NCBI RefSeq assembly: GCF_003018255.1
Contig: NZ_CP027440.1
Direction: 5' to 3' (one strand)
DNA length: 64,000 nt
Source of the DNA: Escherichia coli
GTDB taxonomy: Bacteria; Pseudomonadota; Gammaproteobacteria; Enterobacterales; Enterobacteriaceae
Positions 15,001 to 18,000 of this stretch are shown piece after piece (within the stretch, counting starts at the first letter, position 1; every line of letters starts with the position of its first letter). Position numbers: made by a program.

Positions 15001-18000
15001 GGCCTGAGGAGATCAAACATTATTAATCTGGAGTGGCAACAAATCGATATGCAGCGACGTGTTGCTTGGGTAAACCCTGAAGACAGTAAGTCAAACCGCG
15101 CTATTGGGGTCGCACTGAATGACACTGCCTGCAAGGTGTTGCGTGATCAAATAGGCAAACATCACCGCTGGGTGTTTGTTTATACCACTGCTGCCAGAAG
15201 GCCTGACGGGACAATGACACCAAGCATCAGAAAGATGCGCCTGGACTATAACACATCGTGGTTAACAGCATGTCGTCGGGCAGGAATTGAAAATTTCCGT
15301 TTTCATGACCTCCGCCACACTTGGGCCAGTTGGTTAATTCAGTCAGGTGTACCGCTGTCAGTACTTCAGGAAATGGGCGGCTGGGAGTCTATCGAAATGG
15401 TGCGTAGGTACGCACACCTTGCACCTAATCATTTGACAGAGCACGCGAGGAAAATTGACGACATATTGAGTGACGATGTCCCAAATTTGTCCCCCCCTGA
15501 GGTTTTTGAGGATGCAAAGAAAGCATAAGTAATTGAATTAGAATGAGTTAAGCTCACGCTTTCAAGTGGTGAGCAACAACTTTAAAGATCTTGGCCCGGA
15601 AGTCAGTTTCCGCCGTATTTATGAATATGCTGGCGGCGACTGGCAGGAAGATAATGGCGTCTGGCACCAGAACGTGTTCGCTTATTATCTCTCCATCTCC
15701 TGTAACCATTGCGATGACCCCACATGTACAAAAGTCTGCCCCAGCGGCGCAATGCATAAGCGTGAAGATGGCTTTGTGGTGGTTGATGAAGATGTTTGTA
15801 TCGGCTGCCGCTACTGCCACATGGCTTGTCCGTACGGCGCGCCACAGTACAATGCTGAAAAAGGGCACATGACGAAGTGCGATGGTTGTTATTCGCGCGT
15901 CGCCGAGGGGAAACAACCCATATGTGTCGAATCCTGCCCGCTGCGTGCACTTGAGTTCGGTCCAATTGAAGAGCTGCGCCAGAAGCACGGCACTCTGGCT
16001 GCCGTCGCGCCACTGCCGCGCGCGCATTTCACAAAACCCAATATCGTTATCAAACCTAACGCCAACAGCCGCCCGACCGGCGATACCACTGGTTATCTGG
16101 CTAATCCGGAGGAAGTGTAAAATGGGAAATGGATGGCATGAATGGCCACTGGTTATCTTTACCGTATTGGGTCAATGCGTAGTAGGCGCGCTGATTGTTA
16201 GCGGAATTGGCTGGTTCGCCGCCAAAAATGACGCAGACCGTCAGCACATTGTTCGTGGCATGTTTTTCCTCTGGCTGTTGATGGGCATCGGGTTTATTGC
16301 CTCTGTCATGCACCTGGGATCGCCACTGCGAGCGTTTAACTCGCTGAATCGAATCGGTGCTTCTGGTCTGAGTAACGAAATTGCTGCCGGTTCAATATTT
16401 TTTGCCGTTGGCGGATTATGGTGGCTGGTGGCAGTCATCGGTAAAATGCCGCAAGCGTTGGGGAAACTCTGGTTACTTGTCAGCATGGCGCTCGGCGTCA
16501 TTTTCGTCTGGATGATGACCTGCGTGTATCAAATCGACACAGTGCCAACCTGGTATAACGGTTACACTACGCTGGCTTTCTTCCTGACAGTATTGTTGAG
16601 CGGTCCAATACTTGCTGCCACAATTCTGCGGGCAGCCCGCGTTACATTTAATACCACACCATTTGCCATCATTAGCGTTCTGGCGCTGATCGCTTGTGCC
16701 GGGGTGATTGTGCTGCAAGGTTTGTCTCTGGCGTCTATTCACTCATCCGTACAACAAGCCAGCGCACTGGTACCAGATTACGCCTCCTTACAGGTCTGGC
16801 GTGTGGTATTGTTATGCGCAGGTCTAGGATGCTGGCTTTGTCCGCTCATTCGTCGCCGTGAACCTCACGTTGCCGGACTTGTTCTGGGGCTAATCCTCAT
16901 ACTTGGCGGTGAGATGATCGGGCGTGTGCTCTTTTATGGCCTGCACATGACGGTAGGAATGGCTATTGCAGGTTAACAAATTGGTGCGGGGCAACCCGCA
17001 CATTTCAGGATGTTAGGAATGACCCATTTTTCACAGCAAGATAATTTTTCTGTCGCGGCGCGCGTGTTGGGCGCGCTGTTTTATTACGCTCCAGAGAGTG
17101 CGGAAGCCGCCCCCCTGGTTGCGGTACTCACCCGTGACGGCTGGGAAACTCAGTGGCCTCTACCAGAAGCGTCATTAGCGCCGCTGGTGACTGCTTTTCA
17201 GACACAGAGTGAAGAGACTCACGCCCAGGCCTGGCAGCGTTTGTTTGTCGGCCCGTGGGCACTGCCGTCACCGCCGTGGGGGTCGGTCTGGCTGGATCGC
17301 GAATCTGTGCTGTTTGGCGATTCAACATTGGCACTTCGTCAGTGGATGCGCGAGCAAGGCATTCAGTTTGAAATGAAGCAAAACGAACCGGAAGATCATT
17401 TTGGTTCACTGCTGTTGATGGCTGCGTGGTTGGCGGAGAATGGTCGCCAGACAGAATGCGAAGAATTGCTGGCATGGCACCTTTTTCCGTGGTCAACACG
17501 TTTTCTTGACGTTTTTATCGAAAAAGCAGAACACCCTTTCTACTGTGCACTGGGTGAACTGGCTCGCTTAACGCTGGCGCAATGGCAATCACAACTGTTG
17601 ATTCCTGTCGCGGTTAAACCGCTGTTTCGATAGGATCACCGTATTATTGCCGGATGGTGACAATTACGCGCAATTCGGCAATGATAGGTTACAGTGTCAC
17701 GTTTTTTATCTCTTAAAGCACGCACTGCTTTTGCGGCTGGCCTCTTTTGCCGCAAAATAGTCGCCCGTGTTTCATTGCCCATTTCTGCTCATGCATCATC
17801 TACACATCTATCCGGATCTGCGCACTATGTTCCGCCGTCTGCTTATCGCAACAGTCGTCGGTATTCTTGCGGCCTTTGCCGTTGCCGGGTTTCGTCATGC
17901 AATGCTGCTACTGGAGTGGTTGTTCCTCAATAATGACTCCGGCAGTCTGGTCAATGCAGCGACAAATCTTTCCCCATGGCGACGGCTGCTAACTCCGGCG

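Follow-up and report, generated by a model that had tools for sequence, protein, structure and literature searches.

The window analyzed in this work is a stretch of 64,000 nt from Escherichia coli (contig NZ_CP027440.1 of assembly GCF_003018255.1) in which the arm of a lambdoid prophage meets the respiratory gene ynfG. On the phage side, an excisionase gene (xis) is followed by an integrase gene (int) that is read toward the junction. On the host side, a 3′ fragment of ynfG is followed by ynfH and dmsD. The coordinates of these genes and of the smaller features around the junction are given in Table 1.

Table 1. Genes and sequence features on both sides of the prophage-host junction (positions are those of the window).
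Feature	Position	Strand	Evidence or remark
Early-region arm, on the integrase side, of a lambdoid prophage of the Stx-phage type	1-15580	.	Runs past the left edge of the window
Excisionase (Xis), 123 aa	14138-14509	+	phrog_2907 residues 1-116 of 117, E = 1.1e-43
Tyrosine integrase, 387 aa	14365-15528	+	PF00589 residues 184-355, E = 5e-45; PHROG integrase families
Candidate arm-type Int-binding site ATGCAAAG	15512-15519	+	Int-side arm, 69 nt before the core
Phage-derived hairpin around both candidate GTGs	15545-15582	+	MFE -12.2 kcal/mol
Phage-coded pseudo-N-terminus GTG GTG AGC AAC AAC (MVSNN)	15566-15580	+	No YnfG counterpart
3′ fragment of ynfG, codons 27-205 and stop	15581-16120	+	BLASTP; Cys groups II-IV only
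7-bp common core (overlap region) TTTAAAG of attL	15581-15587	.	ynfG nucleotides 79-85
Candidate host core-type half-site ATCTTGG	15588-15594	.	Inverted partner of CAAAGAT across the core in attB
ynfH (membrane anchor subunit), intact	16122-16976	+	Collinear with MG1655; cut off from the ynfE promoter
dmsD (Tat proofreading chaperone for DmsA and YnfE/F), intact	17019-17633	+	Last gene of the split operon

Over their whole length, positions 1-15579 of the window share 99.6% identity with Shigella phage 75/02 Stx and 99.4% with POCJ13; this identity covers the visible 15.6 kb, and the remaining roughly 45 kb of the prophage lie outside the window. The arm is collinear with the 75/02 record (NC_029120) and includes cI/cro/cII, O/P-like genes, RecE, gam, bet, exo, and int. 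The int gene shares 99.8% nucleotide identity with the POCJ13 and 75/02 integrases, and the PF00589 catalytic domain of its product is complete. The start of int is overlapped for 145 nt by xis, whose product scores 28.5 bits against TIGR01764 (cutoff 28.8). The xis ORF is unannotated in the reference phage record. On the basis of its sequence, the prophage is a sibling of the POC-J13 / 75/02 group (Sepvirinae, Diegovirus) in another host. This family is medically relevant and spreads stx1 among Shigella and E. coli; its members typically carry stx1.

The TAA stop codon of int occupies positions 15526-15528, and the common core starts 52 nt further on. Nucleotide identity to E. coli ynfG has its first base at exactly 15581, which corresponds to codon 27 (FKDLGPEV). 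In a megablast comparison against 5,426 complete E. coli genomes, the host identity from 15581 onward was found in more than 5,200 genomes, but a match that continues through the integrase was found in only 88 (1.6%), the O104:H4 outbreak clone included. The ynfG site is uninterrupted in 5,230 of the 5,426, among them K-12 MG1655. Because the identical junction occurs in 88 complete genomes, it is neither a chance nor an assembly effect, and the prophage-host junction that the original prediction placed inside ynfG is borne out.

Two other accounts of this arrangement exist a priori, namely, that the assembly is chimeric or that the K-12 gene also starts at this position, such that nothing is truncated. 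Both are practically negligible, as the 88 complete genomes that share the junction are independent of each other, and YnfG of K-12 has 205 aa, its N-terminus is longer by 26 residues, and its gene has a strong Shine-Dalgarno (SD) sequence. Moreover, passages of the published work describe a PCR confirmation of the junction between phage and locus S1742, for which the amplicon measures 1,224 bp. Of the primers used there, Stx_phage_dn matches the window at 15089 (+) and S1742_dn at 16312 (-), both perfectly, and the predicted amplicon is likewise 1,224 bp; the window therefore holds the published junction.

The novelty implied for this integration site was not confirmed. According to passages of earlier reports, Gray et al. 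(2014, PMC4193171) found POC-J13 in S1742, the ynfG locus of S. flexneri, which is annotated as a “putative oxidoreductase,” and the phage integrates into ynfG in lysogens of S. flexneri 2457T and E. coli MG1655 (PMC4193171). The same site (S1742) is also described for phage 75/02 (PMC5447701) and for further Shigella isolates (PMC4606844), and an Stx1a prophage of E. coli RM10410 is located at ynfG (PMC10562709). The statement that the site is not seen in K-12 thus holds for wild-type K-12, but not for the laboratory lysogens of MG1655 (PMC4193171).

The attachment core was resolved by a four-way alignment of the intact site, the window junction, and the int-side and far junctions of the prophage of O104:H4 strain 2011C-3493, the far junction being drawn from relatives’ genomes. 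The intact site (attB) reads ...GTGCAAAGAT-TTTAAAG-ATCTTGGCC..., the int-side junction ...GAGCAACAAC-TTTAAAG-ATCTTGGCC..., and the far junction ...GTGCAAAGAT-TTTAAAG-TTGGTTACG.... The circular 75/02 record closes as GGTGAGCAACAAC-TTTAAAG-TTGGTTACG, which is exactly the attP predicted from the two junctions. TTTAAAG is the sole sequence that the circular phage record has in common with attB and with the two prophage junctions. Since the phage and host bases differ on either side of it, the block of identity is exactly 7 bp. A length of 7 bp is the size of the tyrosine-recombinase overlap region. The check proposed earlier, which was to locate the other prophage end and the duplicated att core, thus found the same 7-bp core in both junctions, with the far end taken from related genomes.

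The sequences that flank the core contain further candidate integrase sites. In attB (CAAAGAT-TTTAAAG-ATCTTGG), the core is bracketed by a perfect 5-bp inverted repeat (AAGAT/ATCTT), with 6/7 matches when extended to CAAAGAT/ATCTTGG, and these flanks are candidate core-type half-sites that may be bound by Int. The reconstructed attP has three copies of the 8-mer ATGCAAAG; counted from the core, they lie at -69, +80, and +100, the latter two on the other arm, and these repeats are candidate arm-type Int sites. In addition, the phage DNA immediately left of the core agrees with ynfG at 13 of 22 nt (binomial p about 7e-4), with conservative in-frame differences. This resemblance is limited to about 18 nt adjoining the core, where Int core-type sites are expected, and it may reflect a constraint from Int core-site recognition or a relic of captured DNA. 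A keyword search of passages from papers on ynfG-site phages yielded no base-level statement of the core, attB, or attP. Such base-level definitions, with TTTAAAG as the core, are useful for prophage-boundary calling and PCR typing.

The second junction was sought both in the window and in relatives. The far-junction sequence TTTAAAGTTGGTTACGTATCG is absent from the window at up to three mismatches, and a blastn search across the whole window found no copy of the ynfG 5′ fragment (best E = 0.29); there is accordingly no intact ynfG 5′ end elsewhere in the window that would speak against truncation. With a junction-spanning query, the far junction, which consists of ynfF, then ynfG nucleotides 1-85, and then phage DNA, was detected in 81 genomes, and 81 genomes have both junctions. 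In all genomes without a full far junction, identity ends at ynfG nucleotide 85, i.e., after 26 codons and the 7-bp core. In seven of the 88 genomes with the int junction, no far junction matches at a coverage of at least 80%; therefore, some prophages in ynfG have undergone rearrangement or differ in their right arm.

Two relatives illustrate the far end. The prophage of O104:H4 2011C-3493 is approximately 60 kb and ends in an 84-bp pseudogene (“4Fe-4S binding protein, missing C-terminus”) directly after ynfF; its ynfG 5′ fragment reads MTTQYGFFIDSSRCTGCKTCELACKDFKVGYVSFKIN and then reaches a stop, with 37 codons in all. The closest complete genome is that of E. coli 2009C-3133, with 99.4% identity over 24 kb across the junction. 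Its prophage, of approximately 62 kb, has the genes stx1A and stx1B downstream of Q, and its far end is the same as that of the O104:H4 prophage. For the prophage in the window, completeness, stx content, and far junction may be predicted from these 99.4-99.6% identical relatives, and the far end would be expected to read ynfF-ATGACCACACAATATGG...GCAAAGAT-TTTAAAG-TTGGTTACGTATCG, at roughly 45-47 kb to the left of the window start.

The absence of the other prophage end from the window, together with the 7/88 genomes that lack a standard far junction, would also fit a deletion or rearrangement scar, in which ynfE, ynfF, the 5′ end of ynfG, and a part of the prophage were lost and int was left beside the truncated ynfG. 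We consider this very improbable. The breakpoint falls, to the very base, on the att core of a phage for which integration at this site is known. Moreover, the left 15.6 kb follow the gene order of an intact inducible phage with 99.6% identity, and 81 genomes contain both junctions.

On the host side of the junction, a GTG-initiated ORF (15566-16120, + strand) encodes 184 aa, which consist of five phage-coded residues and YnfG residues 27-205. In a BLASTP comparison with the 205-aa intact YnfG of a K-12-like genome, residues 6-184 of this frame correspond to YnfG 27-205 with one difference (A74T), in agreement with the earlier description of a GTG frame that joins ynfG at FKDLGPEV. This frame was said to start 38 bp after the int stop, and the frame is indeed there, but the gap is 37 nt (15529-15565). 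The missing YnfG residues 1-26 (MTTQYGFFIDSSRCTGCKTCELACKD) hold C14-x2-C17-x2-C20-x3-C24 (Cys group I). Consequently, the DmsB/YnfG set of four Cys groups (I-IV, 16 Cys) is incomplete. The N-terminal CxxCxxCxxxC motif, the native ATG, and the AAGGAG Shine-Dalgarno sequence are all missing here, as the original prediction had stated. The anti-SD pairing energies at the two candidate GTGs are -0.6 and -0.4 kcal/mol, compared with -8.7 at the native ynfG start and -9.5 at ynfH. The hairpin around both GTGs is marginal relative to shuffled sequences (z = -1.66), as 11 of 200 shuffles fold at least as well.

These observations bear on whether the phage restores the gene that it interrupts, as in the integration of phage 21 / e14 in icd or the tRNA type, which would here make a working YnfG variant from the GTG. 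In favor of this, the frame stays open and in phase beginning at GTG 15566, PGAP calls it as a normal CDS, it scores 221.6 bits on TIGR02951 (cutoff 214.1), and the phage DNA beside the core resembles ynfG (13/22). Such reconstitution is nevertheless highly unlikely. Five residues (MVSNN) replace 26 and restore 0/4 cysteines, and TIGR02951 is matched only at profile positions 25-161 of 161. The SD pairing at the GTG is far weaker than at the native start, the resemblance is confined to the short segment beside the core, and the 5′ fragment at the far junction hits a stop after 37 codons. The phage does not rebuild ynfG, supplying five codons and none of the four cysteines. Because the GTG lacks a Shine-Dalgarno sequence and Cys group I is lost, ynfG is most likely inactivated, with YnfG either not made or not functional. 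In RefSeq, the 184-aa frame is named as an ordinary “DMSO/selenate family reductase complex B subunit.” This name is an annotation artifact that arises because the family model still scores above its cutoff, and the score is no proof of function. The artifact is systematic in lysogens, in which the truncated frame is called an ordinary YnfG/DmsB subunit.

In the NarH/DmsB family, the FS1 cluster is ligated by the first three cysteines of group I and the last cysteine of group IV, while the fourth cysteine of group I ligates FS2. Under this ligand scheme, loss of group I should eliminate FS1, which lies closest to the catalytic subunit, and destabilize FS2. The earlier claim that the first Fe-S cluster is deleted holds with two qualifications. 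Cys group I is gone from the retained 3′ fragment, but in related lysogens the 5′ end has been moved to the other prophage end and is not lost, and more than one cluster would be affected.

Passages of previous studies describe ynfEFGH-dmsD as one operon with a single promoter upstream of ynfE, which FNR activates directly through one site at -40.5 (PMC3688515). They further describe YnfG as the subunit that transfers electrons between YnfE/F and the quinol-oxidizing anchor YnfH (PMC5203670), and DmsD as essential for the maturation of DmsABC and YnfE (PMC12096835, PMC5203670). The predicted disruption of this paralogous DMSO-reductase operon agrees with our results, as ynfEFGH-dmsD is physically split in every related genome examined, and the ynfE promoter is approximately 60 kb from the ynfG fragment in the relatives. 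We infer that YnfEFGH (a selenate reductase and DmsABC paralog) is inactivated. The insertion may also be polar on ynfH and dmsD, which are severed from the FNR-dependent ynfE promoter and follow phage genes, int among them, whose expression is mostly shut off during lysogeny. A consensus scan of positions 14000-17700 found four promoter-like sites compared with 3.6 expected, which is at chance level, and the same type of scan over this interval found no terminator between int and the ynfG fragment.

Since DmsD is needed for DmsABC as well, a polar effect could reach beyond the Ynf enzyme. Lysogeny at ynfG, as in Stx1 Shigella, many STEC, and the O104:H4 clone, might then starve the cell of DmsD and impair the maturation of DmsABC and its Ynf paralog, a proposal that we regard as speculative and rather doubtful. 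Among the passages returned by our literature searches, there was no mention of an independent or internal dmsD promoter, of a respiratory phenotype of ynfG lysogens, or of a prophage effect on DmsD or DmsABC maturation. If true, a shortage of DmsD in lysogens would mean that the prophage alters the anaerobic respiration or S-oxide repair of its host. The possible polarity on dmsD is the only mildly novel aspect of this locus, and it is cheaply testable.

Gene reconstitution, a scar left by deletion, a chimeric assembly, and a wrongly annotated start were all rejected on the evidence above (no cysteines or SD, a breakpoint at the att core, 88 genomes, and a longer K-12 gene). We conclude, with a probability of about 0.93, that positions 15529-15594 are the integrase-side junction (attL, as named for lambda) of a lambdoid prophage that belongs to the POC-J13 / 75/02 family and that was inserted in ynfG by Int across TTTAAAG, splitting the gene without rebuilding it. 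Both the phage and its site are published, and the junction is a textbook case of attachment by a tyrosine integrase; in this sense, it is already known. The junction, core, attP, empty site, phage identity, and motif loss come from the present analysis, while site-specific integration into ynfG and the operon structure come from the literature.

The likely course of integration can be outlined as follows. The phage tyrosine integrase recombined attP with attB inside ynfG, with strands exchanged across the 7-bp overlap (ynfG nucleotides 79-85). This conservative insertion duplicated the core and split ynfG, leaving nucleotides 1-85 behind ynfF at the far end of the approximately 60-kb prophage, outside the window, and placing nucleotides 79-618 beside int, in the window. 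The phage arm contributes only an SD-less GTG and five unrelated codons. A YnfG without Cys group I would leave YnfEFGH inactive, and ynfH-dmsD is detached from the FNR-activated ynfE promoter.

Among known systems, the closest are the Stx1a-converting phages POC-J13 (NC_025434) and 75/02 Stx (NC_029120), which share the target gene, an int and att arm with 99.8% identity, an early arm with 99.4-99.6% identity, and the 1,224-bp junction product. The attP reconstructed from the window is the same as that of the circular 75/02 record. In contrast to these two phages, the prophage in the window is less than 100% identical to either and resides in another host, and its stx1 region would lie outside the window. 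The prophage of O104:H4 2011C-3493 has an identical int-ynfG junction, and its far junction contains the same TTTAAAG core, but its early region is mosaic and only about 91-97% identical to the arm in the window. This O104:H4 prophage carries no stx. Other STEC prophages at ynfG, such as the Stx1a prophage of RM10410, are described in passages of the literature as occupying the same gene (PMC10562709).

Several features are shared with the lambda-type heterobivalent tyrosine integrase systems, namely, xis just upstream of int, int read toward att, a 7-bp overlap flanked by candidate inverted core-type half-sites, and repeated 8-mers on both arms. Compared with int genes of the P22 group (P22 / DLP12 IntD-like), nucleotide identity is about 70-77%. 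P22 and DLP12 integrate into the tRNA genes thrW and argU, respectively, and lambda uses an intergenic site; unlike these phages, the prophage in the window targets a respiratory gene within its coding sequence. A protein-coding target is shared with phage 21 / e14 in icd, as is a phage arm that partly resembles the displaced host sequence (13/22). Unlike in icd, however, the displaced ynfG segment does not appear to be functionally replaced, and the first Cys group is lost from the predicted product.

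In lysogens, the ynfG frame truncated by the prophage is named by RefSeq/PGAP as an ordinary protein (WP_000254426.1, with "ynfG" labels). The TIGR02951 model of DmsB/YnfG scores the frame at 221.6 bits (cutoff 214.1), despite the absence of the first cysteine motif (Cys group I). This naming as a normal coding sequence looks like a systematic annotation artefact that extends to about 88 genomes. The frame also carries the substitution A74T (K-12 numbering; window 15710-15712), which directly precedes a cysteine of Cys group II and changes the motif DDPACTK of K-12 to DDPTCTK.

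To the left of the 7-bp core, the phage bases at window 15559-15580 match the displaced ynfG sequence at 13 of 22 positions (p about 7e-4), with conservative in-frame changes (E>Q, L>V, A>V, C>S, K>N, and D>N). This likeness may reflect a constraint that Int imposes on its core site, or it may be a relic of captured ynfG/dmsB-like DNA. The start of int is overlapped by 145 nt by a full-length excisionase ORF, which is not annotated in the record of the reference phage 75/02 (NC_029120) and is labeled as a truncated HTH pseudogene in the RefSeq annotation of O104:H4. Judged by collinearity with the same phage record, the prophage also carries a toxin gene and an antitoxin-like regulator gene (see table).

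Features identified in the prophage and in the adjoining host genes
Feature	Window position	Strand	Evidence or remarks
RelE/ParE-type toxin gene and transcriptional-regulator (antitoxin-like) gene	~530-1240	+	Collinearity with NC_029120 gp21/gp22
Excisionase ORF, full length	14138-14509	+	phrog_2907, E = 1e-43
Truncated ynfG frame, 184 aa	15566-16120		20267-20821 in the lysogen locus (L002); normal CDS in RefSeq/PGAP
G+C-rich hairpin GTGCGGG-GCAA-CCCGCAC	16984-17001		In the 42-nt ynfH-dmsD spacer

Within the host region, the hairpin between ynfH and dmsD could influence the expression of dmsD or the stability of the mRNA, a possible role that is relevant to the question of independent dmsD expression. 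Compared with MG1655 (L004), the window lacks about 154 bp of the ydgA-uidC intergenic region (window 43882-43909; L004 29399-29553), probably a small indel of an intergenic repeat element. Inside rsxC (window 60912-61335), MG1655 aligns in several registers shifted by about 96 bp, a pattern in the alignment that indicates a tandem-repeat region, possibly with copy-number variation.

Among the 5,426 complete E. coli genomes searched, the int junction was found in 88 and the standard far junction in only 81. The attB region is otherwise broken in about seven further genomes (e.g., CP059835, with the break at position 4037 of the uninterrupted site, L001). The mismatch in junction counts and these other breaks suggest that some prophages are rearranged or that ynfG has received other insertions. 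Prophages at ynfG that share the same int and att differ in cargo: the copy in O104:H4 (NC_018658.1, 2546000-2595000) lacks stx, stx1a is present in the copy of 2009C-3133 (CP013025.1), and one phage from STEC1589 is recorded under the name Stx1c. The users of the ynfG site are a mosaic family rather than one phage.
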